From: a virus | Lineage: Duplodnaviria > Caudoviricetes | Reading direction: 5' to 3' (one strand) | Length of the DNA stretch: 64,000 nucleotides | IMG/VR virus record: IMGVR_UViG_3300033121_001941 | Location: 24,657 to 88,656 of that record | Shown here: positions 1,488 to 44,567 of the stretch, piece by piece | Layout: each line of letters starts with the position of its first letter | How positions within the stretch are numbered: the first letter of the stretch is position 1 | Program-made: the position numbers and the translations under genes | Notes under the pieces: generated by a model | The model's database searches: none | What the model was told of the DNA's origin: nothing | The model's input: only the letters and a program-made list of their open reading frames with translations

Positions 1488-2831
1488 ATGAAATCTGTTA
1501 TTGACATTCTTGAATCTCTAGAATCAACACAGGGAAGTCTTGCAAAGCGAGAAATTCTTGAAGTAAATCGAAACAATGAACTTCTTAAACGGGTTTTTGT
1601 TGCTGCGGGGGATCCATATACTGTTTACAATGTGAACAAATTTAAGTGCCCACCGCCTATTTCAAAAACAAGTAATGATAATGACGTTGTTTTACATTTT
1701 ATTGGAAATGTTCTTCAATGTCTTTCGAGCCGTTCTGTAACAGGAAATGCTGCGAAACAACTTGTTGTTGATACGTTTTCAACAATGTCTGAACTTCAAC
1801 AAAAATGGTGTCAACGCATTATTCTTAAGAATATGAGATGTGGCGTACAGGAATCAACTGTAAACAAAGTGTGGCCGGGAACTTTGAATAGTTTCGCTGT
1901 GGCCCTTGCTTCCACGGTAAAATCTGAATTTGTTGCAGGTGAAGGAATCAAAATTCTTGAACCTGTAAATTATCCTGTCCGCGTTGAACCAAAACTTGAT
2001 GGACTTCGTTGTATCGCAGTCAAACACAAAGGTGAAGTAACGTTTTATACGAGAAATGGGACAGTTCTTGAAACTCTTCCTCGCATTAAAAAAGCCCTTG
2101 AAAATGCAAATTATGACAACATGGTTCTTGACGCGGAAGCCATGAGTTCTGATTGGAATGATAGCATTCATGTTATTATGTCAAAAAAGACAAAACACGA
2201 TGACAGTGAAATTGTTCTAAATGTTTTTGACGCACTTTCGTACGAAGATTGGATTTCGCAGTCAAGTCATGAATCATATAATTCTAGGCTCGCTGCCGTA
2301 TCAGTTATCGTAAGTTCTGTGAACAATCCGTGCGTTAAACAAGTTCCACACATTATGGCGAAAAACGAAAGTGAACTTAAGGAATTTTTTGCTGAATGCA
2401 TGTCAAATCAGTTTGAAGGTGTAATGCTTAAAACCCTTAATACACCCTATTTGTTCAAGCGCAGTGATAATATCAAAAAACTTAAACCTTGCGTTACATA
2501 CGAAGGTGTAATTGTTGGTCATTATGATGGTCGCAGAGGGACAAAACGCGAAGGACTTTTTAATGGAATTGAAGTTGTTTTTCCGAACGGAATTGTAACT
2601 CGTGTTGGAAGTGGTTTTACTGATTCGATTCGAACTGATGTTCAACTAAATGGCCCAGATTCATATATTGGGAAAATTGTCGAAATCGAAGCGCAACCTG
2701 ATCCAATGACACTCGATGGTCTGTCAAAAGATGGGAAGGCCCGCTTTCCAGTTTTTTGTAGATTTCGTGATGAATCAGACGTTGATCCAAAGGTGATTGC
2801 TGCAGGCGTAAAATACTTTGAGGAATTGTAA
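1488..2831 (+). CDS. lig: ATP-dependent DNA ligase
   Basis: Motif I EPKLDGLR (KxDGxR), DAE, FDAL, EGVMLK, KLK and C-terminal OB fold (VGSGF...RFPVF). Confidence 0.95.
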   Translation: MKSVIDILESLESTQGSLAKREILEVNRNNELLKRVFVAAGDPYTVYNVNKFKCPPPISKTSNDNDVVLHFIGNVLQCLSSRSVTGNAAKQLVVDTFSTMSELQQKWCQRIILKNMRCGVQESTVNKVWPGTLNSFAVALASTVKSEFVAGEGIKILEPVNYPVRVEPKLDGLRCIAVKHKGEVTFYTRNGTVLETLPRIKKALENANYDNMVLDAEAMSSDWNDSIHVIMSKKTKHDDSEIVLNVFDALSYEDWISQSSHESYNSRLAAVSVIVSSVNNPCVKQVPHIMAKNESELKEFFAECMSNQFEGVMLKTLNTPYLFKRSDNIKKLKPCVTYEGVIVGHYDGRRGTKREGLFNGIEVVFPNGIVTRVGSGFTDSIRTDVQLNGPDSYIGKIVEIEAQPDPMTLDGLSKDGKARFPVFCRFRDESDVDPKVIAAGVKYFEEL

Positions 2832-2835
2832 GAAA

Positions 2836-3150
2836 ATGAAAGATATTTTTAATAAACAAATTTGTGTTAATGATAATGTTATATTTTCAACGAGAGGGAC
2901 ATGTAATTATTCACATTTATCATTGGGCGTAGTTACAAAAGTAACAGATCGTCACCTAATGATTTTAGTTTTAAAATCAAGTTCATTTGCATTTCGTAAC
3001 GGTCTTAGAAAAATTGTTTATTTCAAAAATGAAAACGATGAATATGATTCAAAAATAGTTGTTAAACGTAAACCAAACATGCCGTATAAGACACGTATAT
3101 TACGTAGTGATAATATTGTAGTTGTTCCCATGAACATGGTGAATGTATGA
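2836..3150 (+). CDS. hypothetical protein
   Basis: ORF; start trimmed to the ATG after the ligase stop. Confidence 0.55.
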   Translation: MKDIFNKQICVNDNVIFSTRGTCNYSHLSLGVVTKVTDRHLMILVLKSSSFAFRNGLRKIVYFKNENDEYDSKIVVKRKPNMPYKTRILRSDNIVVVPMNMVNV

Positions 3151-3455
3151 TTCTTTGGCGAGGAAAATCTAAAGCTTGTTCTTTTCCTGAACGAAGTCGT
3201 ATACGTTATCGTATCATATTAGAAGTTACGTCAAGTTCTCTTTCTCTTAAAAAAGAAGTGCTTTCACAAGCAGGTCATTGGAAAGTTGAACCATGGACAC
3301 TTTACCAACTGTGTTGGTATTTTGGGGCGCCTCAGTTTGGATTTAGGCACGCATGGTATGATGGCCCAAATTGCAGTTTTGCATTTGGGTTTTTAATTTT
3401 TAGTTGGCATCAATTTGATTGTAAAAAATGTGATAAAAATTTAAAGAAAACGTAA
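3147..3455 (+). CDS. hypothetical protein
   Basis: 102-aa ORF, coupled to neighbours. Confidence 0.55.
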   Translation: MILWRGKSKACSFPERSRIRYRIILEVTSSSLSLKKEVLSQAGHWKVEPWTLYQLCWYFGAPQFGFRHAWYDGPNCSFAFGFLIFSWHQFDCKKCDKNLKKT

Positions 3456-4334
3456 ATGAAAAAAACGTTGTTATTCACCGGATTGTTTCTCGTTGAAGTA
3501 TTGTCTTCTGCGCATTCATGGCGAAATGTTGGCTCCGCGTGGCAAATTTCCGATATTGAAAATCCGGTTGTTCAACATCAAAATTTAGTCAATGATCATT
3601 GTCCAACTGACATGATACATGTATCAGGACAAATGAAGCAAAACGATCCTATAAAAGGAAGCGTCGAGACGTTACAATTAACAACGTGTTTAAATTTTCT
3701 TGATGGTTTTGATGAAAATGGCATTCCAAAATTTCCTGAAAGATGTCAAATTTTTGATAAAGAAAAATGGAAAAAAATATCTTCAACACTAACAACGAAA
3801 CATATTAACGTATGTATCGATAAATTTGAATTTCCCAATATTCCCGGTGTTTATCCAATAATCGCTATTAATTACTATGAATCACAAACATTGTGTGCTT
3901 CAAAACAGAAACGTCTTTGTTTCGAAGATGAATGGACATTTGCTTGTGAAGGCCCAGAAGCTTTACCATATCCATATGGGTATGTTCGCGATTCTACAAC
4001 GTGTAATATTGATAAACAGTGGCGATTATTTGATGCAAATAAACTTATGCAACGAAAAAATATAATTGCTCGTGATGAACTTGCAAGATTGTGGCAAGGT
4101 GAAGCATCGGGAATGAGACCTAATTGTCATAGCGTATTTGGCGTATATGATCAAACAGGTAACGTAGATGAATGGGTTACGACTATAAATCTCAGGCCGT
4201 TTCAATCTGTGTTAACCGGAGGATATTGGGGCCCTGTTCGTGCACGTTGTCGTCCAAAAACGACCGTTCATAATGAAAGTCACTATTTTTATCAACAAGG
4301 ATTTCGTTGTTGTGTAACGCCAATTCAAAATTGA
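3456..4334 (+). CDS. FGE-sulfatase/SUMF1 (C-type lectin fold) domain protein with signal-like N-terminus
   Basis: KRLCFEDEWTFAC, PYPYG, FGVYDQTGNVDEW, GGYW and terminal GFRCC motifs. Confidence 0.85.
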   Translation: MKKTLLFTGLFLVEVLSSAHSWRNVGSAWQISDIENPVVQHQNLVNDHCPTDMIHVSGQMKQNDPIKGSVETLQLTTCLNFLDGFDENGIPKFPERCQIFDKEKWKKISSTLTTKHINVCIDKFEFPNIPGVYPIIAINYYESQTLCASKQKRLCFEDEWTFACEGPEALPYPYGYVRDSTTCNIDKQWRLFDANKLMQRKNIIARDELARLWQGEASGMRPNCHSVFGVYDQTGNVDEWVTTINLRPFQSVLTGGYWGPVRARCRPKTTVHNESHYFYQQGFRCCVTPIQN

Positions 4335-4346
4335 TATTTTAAAAAA

Positions 4347-4514
4347 GTGATTAAAGTTAAAACACTTAAACGCAGTAATCACAATAATGTGAAACGTCTA
4401 GCTACGTGGTTGAAATTAAAACATATTGATTCAATGAGTCATGGTCAATTATGTCGTCTAATTTGTTGGTTACTTACGCGACGAGAAAAACGTCAACGAA
4501 ATCTCATACCGTGA
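4347..4514 (+). CDS. small basic hypothetical protein (55 aa, GTG start)
   Basis: Manually translated open frame filling the intergenic gap. Confidence 0.4.
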   Translation: MIKVKTLKRSNHNNVKRLATWLKLKHIDSMSHGQLCRLICWLLTRREKRQRNLIP

Positions 4515-4578
4515 GAATATTTATTTTTCGGATAGAGGTTACCAATATTATGCAGTCCAAAATTAATCGTGGGTTAAC

Positions 4579-4830
4579 GTGGGTGCCTCAAAAACCATTC
4601 TAGAAACACCGATGACCAGTAAAATTCATTACTTTAACATGTGTCCCAGTCGTTGTTTTTGGAAATCAACAACGCCTATGAGTTCTATCGATATAACCAT
4701 AGATGTTAAATACGTTACGTGTCAGACATGCAAAAAAATGATTCTTGAACATGTGTTAAATGTTGATTGGGAAAAATTGAATATCGACGAATTGAATATT
4801 ATTTCTTCGTGGGCAAATTCAAAAAAGTGA
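4579..4830 (+). CDS. hypothetical protein (possible Zn-binding)
   Basis: 83-aa ORF with H...C...CxxC (VTCQTC). Confidence 0.5.
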   Translation: MGASKTILETPMTSKIHYFNMCPSRCFWKSTTPMSSIDITIDVKYVTCQTCKKMILEHVLNVDWEKLNIDELNIISSWANSKK

Positions 4831-39199: not shown

Positions 39200-39501
39200 T
39201 CTGACTCTTTTTCTTTGTTTTCTTCACTATCGTCAATTGAAATTTTATTTGCAATTAATAACAATGAATGTTTTGTTAGTTTAATATCAGATAAAAGTTG
39301 ATGAACGACTGGATCATCAAATGTTACTGGCATTTCTGCCACGGTTGAAATTCTTCTATAACAATCGTCTATTATATCCAATGATTGTTCAACTTGCTCT
39401 ATGATAACATCATGCATATCATTTAATCGTAATAATTTAATAACAAGAAAAAATATTAACATTATCAGCAAGACGATTATGAATAATAAAAATGCAATCA
39501 T
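39196..39501 (-). CDS. membrane-anchored hypothetical protein
   Basis: N-terminal hydrophobic helix. Confidence 0.6.
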   Translation of the reverse strand: MIAFLLFIIVLLIMLIFFLVIKLLRLNDMHDVIIEQVEQSLDIIDDCYRRISTVAEMPVTFDDPVVHQLLSDIKLTKHSLLLIANKISIDDSEENKEKESE

Positions 39502-40661
39502 ATTATATCCTTTAAAGCTTCGTCATAATAAGAACAAATGTTTTTAAATGAAAACTGTGTTTTTACTGTTTTCTGTAAATCTTTTGCCCATTCTTTTGGT
39601 GTTGCGCTACTGTCATAAAATTTCATTATTTTACGTTTAAAGTCATCTTCAGATGGATTTGCCCACCGCGCACCTTTTACAAATATGTGATTATCAACTC
39701 TAGTTGAATGTATATCACCTAATTGATATTGAATTGCGACAAATTTTCCTTTGTTTAAGAAATCAAGATGACCTGACCAATTGGTAGCAATTACTGGTAA
39801 TCCTGATGCCGCCGCCTCAAGTACAGGTAATCCAAACCCTTCACCCCTTGTTAACGTAACGAGAGCTTTAATTTGTTTATGCTTGTATAGTGATGATACT
39901 TCCTCGTCAGACATGTCGCCATGCAAAAGCGTCATTTTTGGATATTGACCTACGCGAACTTCTGAAAGTAGTTGTTTCATCATCACCTTTATTTGATTTC
40001 TATCGATCTTTGAATTTCTACCTGCGTTTGTTTTAATAACGATGCCTACATCTTTACGGTCTTTAAATACTTCACATAACCATTTGATAGTTAGGAATAC
40101 GTTTTTTCGATCATTATGAACATTGTTTCCAGTTAATTGTCCAAATAACAGAAAATTAAATGGTGTTGAAAAATCATCAAGCACTGTATTGCTTTCAATA
40201 ACATCAATTTGTTCAGTATACGACTCTGGGACAACAAGAACATCCTTGGTCAATTTTCCAGAATTTTCAAGACATTTTTTTGCATGTTGTGATGGGACAA
40301 TAACAAGATCCATTGAATTACATGAATTTACCCACTCTGGATTACAACGGTCAGTTTCTACAATTGCTGATAGCCCGACGTTGACTCGAGATAATTTTGG
40401 GTCCCATTCATTTGGTAACTTCAATTGAAAAGAAACATCAAATCCTGAGACTGCCTCAACTGTTGTTGTTCTGGTCATAATTTCTCCAATAAGACCATCG
40501 CACGCTTTAGGATCTATAATAAATGGAGTATCACCCCAAGGTGTAATAATAAACTTTACGTTTAAGTCTGATTTACTTAAAAGCCATTTTGCCAACTGCC
40601 TACAATGGGTACCATATCCGGACTGCGTTAGTACGGGACCACTTAGAACGACATTTTTCAT
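39498..40661 (-). CDS. GT-B (GT4-like) glycosyltransferase
   Basis: SGYG..CR, TRGEGFGLPVLEAAASGLPVIATNWSGHLDF. Confidence 0.9.
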   Translation of the reverse strand: MKNVVLSGPVLTQSGYGTHCRQLAKWLLSKSDLNVKFIITPWGDTPFIIDPKACDGLIGEIMTRTTTVEAVSGFDVSFQLKLPNEWDPKLSRVNVGLSAIVETDRCNPEWVNSCNSMDLVIVPSQHAKKCLENSGKLTKDVLVVPESYTEQIDVIESNTVLDDFSTPFNFLLFGQLTGNNVHNDRKNVFLTIKWLCEVFKDRKDVGIVIKTNAGRNSKIDRNQIKVMMKQLLSEVRVGQYPKMTLLHGDMSDEEVSSLYKHKQIKALVTLTRGEGFGLPVLEAAASGLPVIATNWSGHLDFLNKGKFVAIQYQLGDIHSTRVDNHIFVKGARWANPSEDDFKRKIMKFYDSSATPKEWAKDLQKTVKTQFSFKNICSYYDEALKDII

Positions 40662-42156
40662 AATTCAATCTTTTCCCATCGTTTGTTTGTTTTCCAATTT
40701 TCAGTTAACTGTGTTAATGTTTTGTCCCATTCACTGATTAAATGATCCATTGAATAATTTTTCAAAGCATGTTCTCGTGCAAGTTTTCCAACTTCTTCTC
40801 GTTTTTCTGGGCCCCATTCATATACAGTCATCATAGCTTTAGTTACACTTTCATGGGAAACAACATCTTCAAAAATATAAGGCACATTTTGATTTCCAAC
40901 AAGACACCGCGCAGATGATTTAATCGCTACACCATACTCGAATCCAGTTTCGTGATCAAGAACTTGTCTTGTTAACCCACCTGTGCAATTTGCAATAACA
41001 GGTTTCCCTGTCATTTTTGCTTCAAGAACTCCGAGACCAAATCCTTCATTAACGCTTATATTAACGACAACATCAGATATGTTGTAAAGTAAGTTCATTT
41101 CAGGGAAACCAACACGCTCTTTTGAAAATACCACGTTCTCCTTAAGATGAAGCATATCAATTACATGATGTAAATTCGCACCTTCAGGATCTAAAGGATC
41201 AGCATGCATAATTAAAGTTGATTTACGATGCCCATGAGTTTTTTCAAGCTGATCAAGAAACGCCTTAAAAGATACTATTATGTCTGATGGCATTTTTCGT
41301 CGTGCATTTCTGCTGACAAACGTTACGATAAAATGATCTGCGCGCGAAGAACCTAGTGCATTTGACTTAAATTTATCAGAATCTGATTTAGGAACTGGAT
41401 AAAATAATTCTGAAGGAACGGCATGGGGAATATAATTCGTTTTTTCTGGGAATCTTTTACTGACCATTTCATACGTTGGCCAATTAATACAATTGATTTG
41501 ATCAGTTGATTCGTATAAGACGCGATTAAATTCAGGCCAAGGATCATTATCCCACAAATGGTTATAAATGATAGGACACATCGAATGGATTTCGTCTTCC
41601 ATTTCCCAGACCCAATAGAAGAATCTTGGATCAGTGAACAACATTAACACATCAGGCTTTTCCTGTGCCAAAGCCTGTCTTAACATATTTTTATCACCAA
41701 ATCCATTCGTAGGTTTGATTACAAAATCTTCATTAACGACAACGGTATCATAATTTTCGTGTCGCACCGCGCCGCCGAAGCACTTAAATGAATATTTCCC
41801 AGAAGCAATAAGACCGGAAATTAACCACCGTGACTGGGTGCCTACTCCTGACGTACTCACATAAATTTGGACTATATCATCACTGACGATTAATCAGGTT
41901 GGGCGCTGTCGGATCATCGTCATATGTTTTTACATTTAGACTGACCGTAGTCTCTGAACCTTCTCCACTGTTTCCAGACAGGAGCTCGGCTGCTGATTAC
42001 AATTTAATTTTGACTTTTTAACTATCACGCTTATCGTTTCCAATTACGTTGTAGTGTCAATTTTAATGCTTCCCAGCAATTCACCCAATTTTACATCCGC
42101 TGAGCTGTAGTTGTTCACGGATGATCAGATAGCAATAATATCTTTTTTTTACGCAT
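40658..42156 (-). CDS. GT-B (GT4-like) glycosyltransferase, spliced: exon 1 42156-42117, exon 2 41859-40658 (413 aa)
   Basis: Joining exons gives MRKKKILLLSDHPLSTSGVGTQ; RNARRK and NEGFGLGVLEA motifs. Confidence 0.85.
41860..42116 (-). ncRNA. group I intron, 257 nt, no ORF (IA-like, with P7.1 and P5abc-like extension)
   Basis: P1 CATCCGT/GCGGATG with U.G at the splice site; P3 TTGGGTG/CGCCCAA; P GAATTGCTGGGAA; Q AATCAGCAGCC; R GTTCAGAGACTA; S GATATAGTCC; terminal G; P10 GCTCA/TGAGT. Confidence 0.92.
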
Positions 42157-43081
42157 AATTTTTAATCCACATGTTTACTTTATCTTTCCAATCTACGAAC
42201 TTCAAATCACTTCCCCACATAACAAATACATCAAACCCATTTGATTTAATTCTTTCAATTCTTTCATTGTCAAATTTCCAAATATTTTCTGCTAACATTT
42301 TTTTACTTGGATTCCAATCATTTGCTTTATATTTTTCAGGATTACAATGCCAATAATCTCCATTAAATTCAATTACAATCTTTTTATCAAAAGACACAAT
42401 ATCAGCAAAAATTTCTTTTTCACCTTTTTTAGAAATTAATTTCTCTATCTGAAAATTTAATTCAGGAAAAGTTGATTTTACATATTCAAATATTTCAATT
42501 TGGGGTCGCGTTTTTGTTCTTCTTTTTGCAAGCATAAAAGCATTTGATATGTTTCCATAATTTTTCTTTAATGTTTGTAATTGTTTTAATTTTTGTTCAA
42601 CAGTTAATGTTTTACCAAACATCGGATTGTTTTCGCCACCAAGCAAGTTTTTCATATATTCAATATAACATAATCTTGAACACGATCTTGTTACATCAAT
42701 ATCATTAAATCTCGGTTGAACATATACCATGTTGTAACAATGTTTATTTAAACAAGACTTGATAATCCCTTCTTTTTCATTTTTATGATTTTTCCACTTG
42801 TCAAAAGTTCCATCTTTGATATAAAATTTTGATGCACAAGATCTTCCACAAAACACTCTTATGTCTCTATTAGGACGATAATGATATTGAAAATGTTTAT
42901 TACAAACCTTACAAATACCTTGTTTTTGATTTAATTTTAATTTAGCGTAATTACGTTTAGATTTTAACTTCCCCCATAAAATTAAACATTCAGGTGAGCA
43001 CGTTTTTTTATTTGTTGAACTTAAACGTTTTTGACAAATTTGACATTTAGCGTCATTTTTTATCAGATTAATATAAAACAT
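42149..43081 (-). CDS. putative homing endonuclease (Zn-ribbon repeats plus Vsr/DUF559-like nuclease domain)
   Basis: CQIC...CSPEC, CKVC...FCGRSC repeats; ADIV...IVIEFNGDYWHCNP. Confidence 0.75.
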   Translation of the reverse strand: MFYINLIKNDAKCQICQKRLSSTNKKTCSPECLILWGKLKSKRNYAKLKLNQKQGICKVCNKHFQYHYRPNRDIRVFCGRSCASKFYIKDGTFDKWKNHKNEKEGIIKSCLNKHCYNMVYVQPRFNDIDVTRSCSRLCYIEYMKNLLGGENNPMFGKTLTVEQKLKQLQTLKKNYGNISNAFMLAKRRTKTRPQIEIFEYVKSTFPELNFQIEKLISKKGEKEIFADIVSFDKKIVIEFNGDYWHCNPEKYKANDWNPSKKMLAENIWKFDNERIERIKSNGFDVFVMWGSDLKFVDWKDKVNMWIKNYA

Positions 43082-43088
43082 AAATTGA

Positions 43089-44567
43089 TTATATCATCTT
43101 CGGATAAAAATATACGATGTTTTTACACCCATGAATTGTGAATAAGCGTTTATATGATTCTGTGATAAACTGTGAACAATTTTTTAGCGAAATTCTTTTG
43201 ATAGTATCAGTTTTCCAAGATTTAATTTCTGTTTCATAAATCTTTTCAAATCCAAATTTTTCAAAATTTGAACCATCTTCATATCTCAGATCAACACTCG
43301 AAACAATGTCATAATCAGAATAAACTGCTTGAAGTTCTTTTATTAATTTGCCAAAATTATTTTCAATGAAAACGCCTGAATCAGATGATATTTTGACTAT
43401 TTCTAAAACGTTATCTTGTTTAATGTTTATCGCTATACACATTCTTAATTGTTCATTTTGAAACAATCCATAGAAATTTTCAGACTTTTGTTCATTATCA
43501 AGATGTGTCAATTCGAAAAACGTTTTTGCATCATCGCTTGAAATAGCTTTAAACTCACAGTCACTTGATTTTAATCTCGAAAAATGATTTTTCAACCCAT
43601 TGTTAATTAGATTTTTGCACGCAGCCTGTTTATCTCGCCATTCATCTTCGAAAATGTGAATTAATCTGATACCTTTTTCAAGACACTTATCTGATTTTGT
43701 CTGGTGTTTGAACTTATCTTTGTTTAAAACGTCTGAATGCCAGTACAATCCGTTACATTCGATTCCCAAATTATTCTCTTTTATAAGAATATCGATTTCA
43801 ACACCGTTAACATATGATCTTCGTTTTATTTTGATTCCCAACGATTCAACGTAGTCACCAATTTCCTTTTCGAAATTTGATGTGCTCATATCACAATGAT
43901 TACAACGCTGTAACTTTTTACGTATCAAATTGTAAAAACTTAAAGACAAAATATCACCGCAACGTAAACATTTTATTTCAACGTTGCTTTTCCTGTTGTT
44001 GATTCTTGATTCAATATCAGAAATTTGTGTGATTAACTCGAAGTTATTCTTGATTTTTTCGTTGATTATTTTAATGAGTTCGTCAGAAGAATATGAATTG
44101 TATTTGTTTCCCAACGACGCTTGTGATATGTTCTCTAGTGATTTTGATGTAAACTTTGTTTGATCTTTTGCCCAATGTTTTATTTCACCAGACTTGAATT
44201 TTTCTTTTAACGTTTCTGAAACTTTAATACTTAGACCCTTTAATCTTTCGTCCATTTCTTTTGATTTTCCACGCGACCAATGAGATTTCTTTTGTGAAAT
44301 CTTCGTTAATTCAGAACGTAACTGTTTATCGTAATGCCCTTTCGCGTATTCTGAGAATCCAGATTCCCAATTATTCCATGAAACTTTTTCTTCACACGAT
44401 TCACAACATTTACACTTAGGAGGTACAGATAATTCATTCTTTAACAACCACAGTTGCCAAAGTTGTATTCCATGTTTATTTTTTGAGTGAAACGTGATGC
44501 CTCTAGACCACGGTCCAAGAACATCGTTACATAACGGACACTTAAATTGTTGATGTGAAGTAATCAT
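43089..44567 (-). CDS. putative homing endonuclease (Vsr-like EIDI...IECNGLYWH domain) with degenerate C-terminal GNAT-like region
   Basis: EIDILIKENNLGIECNGLYWHS...GIRLIHIFEDEW; N-terminal CPLC and CKCC. Confidence 0.7.
   Translation of the reverse strand: MITSHQQFKCPLCNDVLGPWSRGITFHSKNKHGIQLWQLWLLKNELSVPPKCKCCESCEEKVSWNNWESGFSEYAKGHYDKQLRSELTKISQKKSHWSRGKSKEMDERLKGLSIKVSETLKEKFKSGEIKHWAKDQTKFTSKSLENISQASLGNKYNSYSSDELIKIINEKIKNNFELITQISDIESRINNRKSNVEIKCLRCGDILSLSFYNLIRKKLQRCNHCDMSTSNFEKEIGDYVESLGIKIKRRSYVNGVEIDILIKENNLGIECNGLYWHSDVLNKDKFKHQTKSDKCLEKGIRLIHIFEDEWRDKQAACKNLINNGLKNHFSRLKSSDCEFKAISSDDAKTFFELTHLDNEQKSENFYGLFQNEQLRMCIAINIKQDNVLEIVKISSDSGVFIENNFGKLIKELQAVYSDYDIVSSVDLRYEDGSNFEKFGFEKIYETEIKSWKTDTIKRISLKNCSQFITESYKRLFTIHGCKNIVYFYPKMI

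Follow-up and report, generated by a model that had tools for sequence, protein, structure and literature searches.

The window analysed here is a stretch of viral DNA of 64,000 nt. On its minus strand, a GT4 glycosyltransferase (GT) gene is split into two exons by a group I intron of 257 nt (42116..41860), as determined by reading the sequence and by Rfam, and two free-standing homing-endonuclease-like genes lie upstream of it. The features are as follows:

43089..44567, minus strand: second free-standing homing-endonuclease-like gene, 492 aa; matches phrog_559 and phrog_3339 (E 1e-42 to 1e-46) and Pfam MTES_1575 (E 4.5e-9)
42149..43081, minus strand: homing-endonuclease-like, free-standing gene of 310 aa with a Cys-rich N-terminus followed by NUMOD3 and a predicted Vsr-like nuclease domain
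42117..42156, minus strand: exon 1 of the GT4 gene; ATG at 42156-42154, 13 codons, then T
41860..42116, minus strand: ORF-less intron with no P2 or P9; RF00028, family model R1 and covariation
42094..42105, minus strand: internal guide sequence; GCUCA (42105-42101) forms P10 with exon 2, GCGGAUG (42100-42094) forms P1 with exon 1
42089..42093, minus strand: J1/3 linker UAAAA at the position of P2; UAAAA, AUAAAA or ACAAAA in 20/20 sequences, with no insertion
41991..42088, minus strand: 5′ strand of P3, P4, and P5 with its branched extension; helices 3-5 and 9-10 are 87-100% paired with many two-sided changes
41958..41990, minus strand: P6, P6a, P6b and GAAA loop; helices 11-13 are 100% paired and 6/10 pairs change on both sides
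41948..41954, minus strand: 5′ strand of P7, G-A-GACUA with the A bulged; helix 14 is 100% paired
41910..41947, minus strand: peripheral hairpin between P7 and P3′ (P7.1/P7.2-type); helices 15-16 pair in 100% and 85% of cells and show compensatory changes
41881..41905, minus strand: P3′ strand (41905-41899) and P8 hairpin (41898-41881); helices 3 and 17
41860..41868, minus strand: unstructured 3′ tail, AAAUUUAU and then the terminal G (41860); no P9 and no P9.0
40658..41859, minus strand: exon 2 of GT4; opens with bases 2 and 3 of the Leu codon, followed by STSGVG; supported by Pfam and homologues

The intron and its host gene

A covariance-model scan matched RF00028 (Intron_gpI) at 58.6 bits against a curated threshold of 50 (E 3.3e-14 for an 800-nt stretch, 2.6e-12 for the window as a whole), and exon 2 matched the Pfam domain Glycos_transf_1 at 48.9 bits against a threshold of 26.4 (E 6.9e-13). 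An earlier sequence-only reading had proposed a group I intron without an ORF in a glycosyltransferase gene and a check with group I models, and both scans agree with it; the intron coordinates and splice sites that it gave also proved exact. The sole ORF inside the intron, a 35-aa ORF starting with TTG in the ORF list, is not meaningful. The default Rfam gathering scan of the whole window did not pick up the intron because of the filters of that scan, and thus permissive scans are needed. For annotation, this means that default Rfam filtering overlooks the intron and that the GT gene would be mis-called with a start at GTG 41860. Our family covariance model R1 gave 287 bits for the window intron; it is the only intron detectable in the 64-kb window, where neither Rfam nor R1 found a further one.

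Megablast of the 2.6-kb region against cultured phages returned zero matches, so a close relative in culture is lacking for this phage. Over its 5′ and central parts, the intron shares 70-81% identity with introns from phages of Staphylococcus, Vibrio, Klebsiella and Serratia, among others. Those of the Staphylococcus, Klebsiella and Vibrio phages (for example, DW2 tail hydrolase, vB_SepS_BE22, KP2025 DNA polymerase and the capsid gene of Vibrio phage 1.232.O) are of subgroup IA, IA2-like, and share with the window intron the conserved P5 extension (ACUACAACG..GGAAAC..), J6/7-P7 and the peripheral hairpin between P7 and P3′. Since a P7.1/P7.2-type insertion between P7 and P3′ is a hallmark of subgroup IA, this insertion and the similarity to the staphylococcal phage introns suggest, on sequence grounds, that the window intron is of the same subgroup (IA2-like). 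These introns differ from that of the window in host gene (GT4 in the window) and in host phage lineage. In addition, in all four examined the terminal G directly follows a canonical P9 hairpin capped by a GNRA loop, whereas the window intron has 9 unpaired nucleotides there.

Exon 1 reads MRKKKILLLSDHP followed by T, the first base of a Leu codon. In the unspliced RNA, T42117, G42116 and A42115 make a TGA after codon 13, as had been claimed together with the dependence of expression on splicing, and production of the full-length GT protein would require splicing. When the exons are joined, the frame reads DHP-L-STSGVG; the predicted ligated junction is CATCCGT-TGAGTACG and the predicted N-terminal peptide of the spliced product is MRKKKILLLSDHPLSTSGVG. 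For exon 2, 80 homologous viral loci were found with identities of 51-73%. In all 72 intron-less loci, ..SDHPLSTSGVG.. or a close variant is read straight through, and each of the remaining 8 loci is interrupted at the identical point by an RF00028 intron. The comparison with intron-less relatives, which the sequence-only reading had named as a check, thus returned the same motif as its spliced reading SDHP-L-STSGVG. No second intron was found by Rfam in the long GT ORF of one related locus (L098).

In total, 19 further distinct introns were found, all at the codon of the window intron, so that the family has 20 members; a motif scan and family model R1 contributed 14 beyond the set of related loci. 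In the alignment of the 20 sequences, 92.6% of cells pair, compared to 30-40% when the partners are slid, and 47 of the 86 pairs, including pairs in P1, P10 and P7, show compensatory changes, a covariation reached by none of 500 shuffles. P1 (CAUCCGU/GCGGAUG) takes its 5′ strand from the last 7 nt of exon 1 (42123-42117). It has the U.G pair of the 5′ splice site in all 20 sequences, and compensations occur at two of its pairs (A-U in place of G-C in four sequences and G-C in place of C-G in one). P10 (UGAGU/GCUCA) has only 5 bp in the window copy, one of them G.U, and in the alignment it is 84% paired with changes on both sides at 4 of 5 pairs. The core elements, all of which had been called visible, are fully paired in P3, P4, P6 and P7 and 97% paired in P8. 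The 5′ strand of P7 pairs with UAGUCC (41874-41869) in a pseudoknot with P3, and its outer pair, G-C in 12 sequences, is A-U in the other 8, with the bulged base switching from A to C alongside. The 5′ strand of P3 lies at 42088-42082, P4 pairs 42078-42073 with 41996-41991, and P5 and its extension span 42068-42000. This branched extension contains a GAAA-capped hairpin; its outer stem (helices 6-8) pairs in just 26-51% of cells and is therefore poorly aligned or not conserved. The P7.1/P7.2-type insertion is a bulged hairpin of 38 nt, drawn as one nested hairpin rather than two side by side. The terminal intron base is G in 20/20 sequences. The single-sequence minimum free energy fold recovers P3-P5 and is only modestly better than shuffles (z -1.66).

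Since GTG 41860 opens a 400-aa GT ORF in the ORF list and P9 is missing, the intron could be dead, with the GT gene being a pseudogene or being translated from GTG 41860 without exon 1; the latter had been named as the case that would refute splicing. We regard this as very improbable. The exon 1 peptide M.KK.IL.LSDHP is conserved in all 20 intron-bearing alleles with many synonymous differences, which speaks against a start at GTG 41860, and exon 1 encodes the first strand as well as the DHP of DHPLSTSGVG, a conserved motif present in all intron-less homologues. In addition, P1 and P10 co-vary with the exons, and compensatory helix changes persist inside the lineage of introns that lack P9: these 11 sequences by themselves have 94.9% of cells paired and compensatory changes at 37 of 79 pairs, with pairwise identities down to 64%. 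The GT ORF is intact in the window, and exon 2 aligns without a stop over at least 330 aa in 9 of the 11 P9-less alleles, the other two loci ending early. From this conservation, we infer that the intron is actually spliced.

The intron and the upstream endonuclease gene

The stop codon of the 310-aa gene overlaps the start codon of exon 1 (ATGCGTAA), and the insertion site of the intron lies 40 nt downstream of the end of the gene. Its protein has NUMOD3 as its sole Pfam match (E 8.7e-5) and matches phrog_3339 (homing endonuclease), while members of its family match DUF559 and MTES_1575 with E-values down to 1.9e-7. Across 12 homologues, the residues D227, E238, H245 and D271 do not vary. Searches with phmmer against PDB sequences gave chance matches only. 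The family profile matched Vsr weakly among structures (E 0.012), and its match to I-Bth0305I (3R3P) was not significant (E 0.61). The window protein may resemble the I-Bth0305I/EDxHD family of Vsr-like nucleases and is, as in that family, associated with a phage group I intron; unlike I-Bth0305I, the window gene is free-standing rather than intron-encoded and has an added Cys-rich N-terminal region and NUMOD3. No homologue of the 492-aa gene was found at the corresponding place in any related locus, and this gene is probably outside the intron cassette.

Directly upstream of the GT gene, 18 of the 20 distinct intron-bearing loci have a homologue of the endonuclease gene or a C-terminal remnant of it, compared to 4 of the 72 intron-less loci. 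The distribution of the intron is patchy, and in a quick, unfinished tree search the GT tree needed at least 9 intron gains or losses. Two loci (L033 and L029) with flanks that are 98-99% identical differ by one block of 1,243 bp, which consists of the endonuclease gene, exon 1 and the intron and ends exactly at the 3′ splice site. Duplicated remnants of exon 1 upstream of the endonuclease gene were considered as a general feature and were found only in L081 and L104.

These results fit collaborative (trans) homing, as described in PMC3984707. The ORF-less intron would spread with the free-standing gene for the putative Vsr-like endonuclease, which may cut intron-less alleles, and repair would then copy the endonuclease gene, exon 1 and the intron together. 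Alternatively, the endonuclease and the intron may be independent invaders of one hot spot, linked merely by the 40-nt spacing, with the endonuclease targeting a site elsewhere (e.g., upstream intergenic) and the intron inherited vertically with occasional precise loss. Consistent with this alternative, L009/L010 have the endonuclease gene without the intron, L011 and L012 have part of it without the intron, and one lineage (L083/L097) has the intron without the endonuclease gene. T4 mobE (PMC2790892) also illustrates that mere co-conversion is enough for an adjacent endonuclease to mobilise an intron. However, the strong association across at least nine tree events and the near-identical genomes that differ by the whole block, with its right edge exactly at the 3′ splice site, make independent invasion improbable, and co-conversion by the endonuclease would mobilise the intron anyway with a similar practical outcome.

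Collaborative homing has been reported for the ORF-less psbA intron of cyanophage S-PM2 with the free-standing F-CphI and for the T4 nrdB intron with mobE (PMC3984707, PMC6083498 and PMC2790892). As in these pairs, intron and endonuclease co-occur in the window family and are patchy among close relatives. Unlike F-CphI (Endo VII-like) and MobE (HNH), the window endonuclease appears from its sequence to be Vsr-like with NUMOD3, and it lies upstream with the 40-nt exon between, so that the mobile block carries its own exon 1. Short ORF-less group I introns together with stand-alone endonuclease genes are also found in the Jug (jumbo gut) phages, where, according to PMC12880540, the endonucleases are of the HNH, PD-(D/E)XK and GIY-YIG types. 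The same paper gives about 18 group I introns per jumbo phage genome, in many genes, compared to only one in the 64 kb of the window; it places the Jug-phage introns in terL, nrdD, DNA polymerase and similar genes, and its main text mentions neither a glycosyltransferase nor, in the part available, a P9-less architecture. A literature search found no report of group I introns in phage glycosyltransferase genes. The GT host gene had been regarded as unusual, and while no precedent for it was found, it is weaker as grounds for interest given such intron-rich jumbo phages (PMC12880540).

The approximately 100 alleles collected show, side by side, the empty site, the endonuclease gene only, the endonuclease gene with the intron, the intron with a decayed endonuclease gene, and the intron only. 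As a natural archive, they richly document the homing cycle and how collaborative homing may proceed with a putative Vsr-like endonuclease. Taken together, these results make it very probable that 42116..41860 (minus strand) is a functional phage group I intron of type IA in codon 14 of a GT4 gene, that it lacks P9, that it belongs to an uncultured jumbo phage and that it is associated with collaborative homing.

Absence of P2 and P9

P1 and P3 are joined only by UAAAA at 42093-42089, just as the sequence-only reading had noted. P2, which it had described as lacking, is indeed absent, but this is no special feature: 20/20 family members and 3 of 4 related Staphylococcus and Klebsiella phage introns aligned to Rfam lack it, and the absence of P2 is ordinary. 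A literature search on the absence of P2 returned nothing relevant.

The P9 hairpin normally sits just before the 3′ splice site. In the window intron, the tail after P7′ is CAAAUUUAUG, and the first C pairs in P7, leaving 9 nt including the terminal G. The earlier statement that there is no room for a P9 hairpin therefore stands, with 9 rather than 10 nt unpaired. From reading and folding the sequence, no hairpin is possible in these 9 nt (AAAUUUAUG), and a hidden P9 or P9.0 was sought in the tail without finding a hairpin. Reading of the alignment gave no co-variation for a pairing of the tail with the P1 loop, no conserved hairpin spans the 3′ splice site, and the 'P9' of the Rfam alignment falls on bases of exon 2 and pairs poorly.

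The lack of P9 is not peculiar to the window copy and marks a lineage of 11 of the 20 members, which have 7-21 unpaired bases before the terminal G, with neither length nor sequence of the tail conserved, and no CC:GG in P5. P9 is present in the other 9, as eight classical GAAA-capped hairpins and one atypical one. The CC:GG in P5 occurs in 8/8 members with a GAAA-capped P9 and in 0/12 others, an association that is essentially one split between two intron clades and counts as one event, not eight. Since a diversified lineage of 11 lacks P9 and its relatives keep a GAAA-capped P9, the absence is real and derived, and on an evolutionary timescale it has been tolerated. The window copy is thus a structural variant within a known intron class; the only natural P9-less case that literature searches found was a trans-spliced intron of Prasinoderma.

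In the proposed splicing pathway, P1 would present the U.G pair of the 5′ splice site for attack by an external guanosine. The terminal G (41860) would then enter the site in P7, exon 2 (UGAGU) would be held by GCUCA as P10, and ligation would restore ...SDHP-L-STSGVG.... The lineage that lost P9 would also have lost a putative clamp between L9 (GAAA) and P5 (CC:GG), and its 3′ splice site is probably set by the terminal G and P10 alone. P10 shows no clean separation in length that would compensate for the loss of P9, with approximately 5-9 bp in P9-less and 3-8 bp in P9-bearing introns as read by eye.

P9 has been counted among the paired regions that are essential, and its absence has been called 'very unusual' (PMC3873408); according to PMC11417360, the second step needs P9.0 and P10 jointly, the loss of P9.0 being tolerated only while P10 remains according to work cited there. 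Therefore, the efficiency of splicing may be low or helper-dependent. One explanation is that these introns are competent only with help, such that folding and the choice of the 3′ splice site need unusual ionic conditions or a protein from phage or host (chaperone or maturase-like), and standard self-splicing in vitro would not occur. The unstructured, non-conserved tail is in line with this, as is the family alignment, where the P9-less lineage shows no new helix that would make up for the loss. However, the adjoining endonuclease cannot be an obligatory cis-encoded maturase, because in several P9-less loci only its C-terminal remnant is left beside an intact intron and GT frame: the frame is fully intact in L056/L059, L063 and L071, and in L125 and L106 it is intact for 290 and 239 aa, respectively, up to the end of the locus. 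Moreover, the P9-less design persists in three GT lineages with protein identity of about 38% at the lowest and presumably different hosts, and many group I ribozymes tolerate peripheral deletions. On balance, dependence on a helper appears unlikely.

We somewhat favour the view that the 11 P9-less introns splice accurately without P9, P9.0 or the L9-P5 clamp, through the terminal G and P10 only, and that the mobile unit, consisting of the endonuclease gene, the 40-nt exon and the intron, is a captured intermediate toward endonuclease-containing mobile introns; such splicing would be independent of helper factors. P9/P9.0 and the tetraloop contact between L9 and P5 are regarded as nearly universal in group I architecture and in the choice of the 3′ splice site, and a P9-less lineage beside P9-bearing relatives at the same gene position is a direct test of their dispensability. 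The naturally trimmed 3′ end could also interest engineers of group I ribozymes, e.g., for RNA circularisation.

The interrupted glycosyltransferase gene and its splice junction

The 257-nt intron interrupts a GT4 glycosyltransferase (GT) gene at codon 14, and the reading frames around it are arranged as follows.

Ending at 42149, minus strand: upstream ORF of 310 aa, whose stop codon overlaps the exon 1 ATG (ATGCGTAA)
42156-42154, minus strand: start ATG of exon 1, which has 13 codons (MRKKKILLLSDHP) followed by T and, if unspliced, by TGA
Called from GTG 41860, minus strand: GT exon 2 ORF of 400 aa with a Glycos_transf_1 (GT4) domain (E 6.9e-13)

In a permissive Rfam scan of positions 41600-42400, the group I covariance model Intron_gpI (RF00028, threshold 50 bits) matched the intron on the minus strand with 58.6 bits (E 3.3e-14), as the sequence-only reading had predicted. 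The match recurred in permissive scans of the whole window and of the entire 88.7-kb viral contig, while it went unreported, despite its score being above the threshold, when Rfam was run on the whole window with default gathering settings. No second intron was detectable when the window (1-64000) was scanned. Since the IMG/VR virus record estimates the 88.7-kb contig to be only 26% complete, the source is a jumbo phage.

By eye, P1 is formed by exon 1 CAUCCGU and GCGGAUG (42100-42094), with a U.G pair at the junction, and P10 by exon 2 UGAGU and GCUCA, whose guide bases lie immediately 5' of the P1 guide strand. The last intron base is the G at 41860, and joining of the exons gives CAT CCG T/TG AGT ACG (HPLST). 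A search of IMG/VR with the GT protein yielded 80 related loci (51-73% identity), and the predicted ligated sequence (KKKILMLSDHPLSTSGVGTQ or close variants) is an unbroken frame in 72 of them. The remaining 8 are interrupted at exactly the predicted junction, each by an RF00028 intron of 62-93 bits. Since 72 alleles are uninterrupted and 8 are broken by introns at the same point, the coordinates and the junction first proposed for the window's intron are correct. The insertion site is within DHPLSTSGVG, the most conserved N-terminal motif of the GT enzyme, a placement that is typical of homing sites.

A GT gene had also been considered an unusual host, and our literature search turned up no phage glycosyltransferase gene with a group I intron. 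However, a study of Jug (jumbo gut) phages describes 2,513 group I introns in 136 genomes, in many genes and with stand-alone endonucleases (PMC12880540). Because jumbo-phage introns in many genes are thus already documented, the host gene alone is a minor novelty. The window's intron is a structural variant of an established intron type. What is new is a diversified P9-less lineage alongside P9-bearing relatives at one site, together with a detailed natural record of an endonuclease-intron cassette.

A diversified intron family with and without P9

An exact motif scan located the conserved P3'-flanking motif in 48 viral stretches, and a family covariance model made from seven members recognized another 14 complete introns among them. 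All 20 distinct introns of the GT family are placed after ..L.DHP+T and before ..SGVG. One of them, in the related locus L098, is invisible to Rfam at E<=0.01, yet gets 208 bits from the family model. Base pairs were counted on an independent MAFFT alignment of the 20 introns, with the full structure written out including the P7 pseudoknot and P10. Standard pairs occupied 92.6% of 1,635 cells, compared to 30-40% with slid partners; both sides had changed in 47 of 86 pairs, and the covariation was not matched by any of 500 shuffles. P1 co-varies with the exon (CCGU/GCGG to CCAU/GUGG, and GCGU/GCGC in L098), P10 shows changes on both sides in four of five pairs, and in P7 a G-C to A-U switch is coupled with a change of the bulged base. 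With 26-51% pairing and a poor alignment, the outer stem of the P5 extension was left out as unsupported. The minimum free energy fold of the window sequence alone recovers P1, P3-P6 and a P7.1/P7.2-type hairpin, with an energy just modestly under that of shuffles (z -1.66).

The linker between P1 and P3 is UAAAA in the window and a near-identical 5-6 nt throughout the 20 members, and the alignment contains no P2 in any of them. Introns of cultured Staphylococcus, Vibrio, Klebsiella, Serratia, Aeromonas and Bacillus phages share 70-81% identity with the 5' and central parts of the window's intron, and P2 is likewise missing in three of the four that were extracted and aligned to Rfam. The absence of P2 noted earlier is real but not special, and is ordinary for this intron lineage.

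In all four of these cultured-phage relatives, the terminal G is immediately preceded by a canonical P9 hairpin with a GNRA loop. In the GT family, eight introns have a GAAA-capped P9 hairpin of 7-9 bp, with compensatory changes in all seven counted pairs, and L098 has a longer, atypical hairpin at the P9 position. The other 11 introns, the window's included, have just 7-21 unpaired, unconserved bases from P7' to the terminal G; in the window, the first base after P7', a C, pairs in P7, and the remainder is AAAUUUAU plus G. The lack of P9 recognized in the single sequence is therefore a real and lineage-wide loss, and the P9-less introns are spread over three GT lineages, one with about 38% protein identity to the window's GT. 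Tandem C-G pairs (CC:GG) in the P5 helix are found in 8 of 8 introns with a GAAA-capped P9 versus 0 of 12 others (the P9-less introns and L098). A contact between the L9 tetraloop and P5 is described for T4 introns, and the joint absence of P9 and CC:GG looks like the loss of both partners of a single tertiary contact. The association counts as one event, because it follows the one split that divides two clades of the introns.

Decay was considered as a reading of the P9-less state. The 11 P9-less sequences, whose pairwise identities go as low as 64%, have 94.9% of cells paired when counted by themselves and compensatory change in 37 of 79 pairs. Their GT frames are stop-free (400 aa in the window; exon 2 alignments of at least 330 aa in 9 of 11 alleles, the remaining two loci ending early), and the exon 1 peptide M.KK.IL.LSDHP is conserved with abundant synonymous variation. 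Decay was rejected on account of the covariation, the open frames and the conserved peptide, and the loss of P9 is apparently tolerated. Work summarised in PMC11417360 indicates that the loss of either P9.0 or P10 is tolerated but the loss of both is not, which fits a design that relies on the terminal G and P10. A literature search with limited coverage of the classic subscription literature turned up no natural group I intron that splices in cis and lacks P9.

An endonuclease gene gained and lost with the intron

The 310-aa protein encoded directly upstream of exon 1 has a Cys-rich N-terminus, a NUMOD3 motif (E 8.7e-5) and a C-terminal nuclease domain matching a PHROG annotated as homing endonuclease. 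Its homologues match DUF559 and REase_MTES_1575, and a profile of 12 homologues reached Vsr endonuclease structures at E 0.012 and I-Bth0305I at just E 0.61. A homologue or its C-terminal remnant lies directly 5' of exon 1 in 18 of the 20 distinct loci that carry the intron. It was not seen in L083/L097, whose exon 1 is adjoined by a sugar dehydratase gene, or in L093, for which upstream sequence is limited to 367 nt. Only 4 of the 72 intron-less loci have the endonuclease (complete in L009/L010, partial in L011 and L012). Since decayed copies adjoin intact P9-less introns, the endonuclease is not a cis-encoded helper that splicing strictly requires.

A quick maximum-likelihood tree was made of 81 GT proteins; on it, the presence of the intron requires at least 9 gains or losses, and near-identical alleles differ in whether they have it (L033 vs L029, L081 vs L079/L080, and L117 vs L070). 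L033 and L029 have flanks that are 98-99% identical and differ in one 1,243-bp block, which comprises the endonuclease gene, exon 1 and the intron and has the 3' splice site as its right boundary; therefore, the unit gained or lost consists of the endonuclease gene, its own exon 1 copy and the intron. This linkage matches the pattern called collaborative or trans homing, which is described for the S-PM2 psbA intron with F-CphI and for T4 mobE with nrdB (PMC3984707, PMC6083498, PMC2790892). In contrast to both systems, the endonuclease here is apparently Vsr-like and its gene is positioned upstream.

At L081:1690-1755, and equivalently in L104, the endonuclease gene is preceded by a truncated duplicate of the 5' end of the GT gene (MSEENTFLTPFNFKKKYKVIT, then a stop). 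This duplicate agrees with the sequence of L079, an intron-less neighbour, and breaks off some 16 nt short of the point where the intron is inserted. Thus, in that sub-lineage only, the endonuclease gene is flanked by two diverged copies of exon 1. The duplicate may have been left behind by the insertion event, and may hint at the position of the endonuclease cut.

A second free-standing homing-endonuclease-like gene (43089-44567, minus strand, 492 aa) lies 7 nt from the first, directly upstream, and matches phrog_559 and phrog_3339 at E 1e-42 to 1e-46 and Pfam MTES_1575. It has no homologue at the same position in any related locus, and so looks like a separate, recent arrival.

Observations at related loci and neighbouring genes

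In the related locus L059 (26-1525), a sugar-dehydrogenase-like gene is apparently split into two ORFs, between which lies a 233-aa Cys-rich ORF with a NUMOD3-like motif; the downstream ORF has ..IVVHNC.., which is similar to the C-terminal splice motif of inteins. In its layout the locus is reminiscent of the 'fractured genes' described with split inteins (PMC2677866). The 233-aa ORF has homologues in L026, L036, L038, L041, L052 and L053. The GT ORF after the L098 intron (2134-4581, minus strand) is 815 aa compared to about 400, and resembles the window's GT only up to about residue 270, which could reflect a fusion or an insertion (possibly an intein). The intron-less GT allele at L065:3001-4008 has an in-frame stop inside the aligned region, possibly reflecting a pseudogene or an assembly error.

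In the window, a borderline match to the tRNA-Sec model (15834-15919, plus strand; 47.6 bits vs a threshold of 47) sits in an array of about 22 tRNA genes. A second GT4 gene (39498-40661, minus strand) and the end of the intron-bearing GT overlap by 4 nt. Flavobacterium phage immuto is annotated with the same pair of GT genes in tandem, with about 34% identity to the intron-bearing GT.
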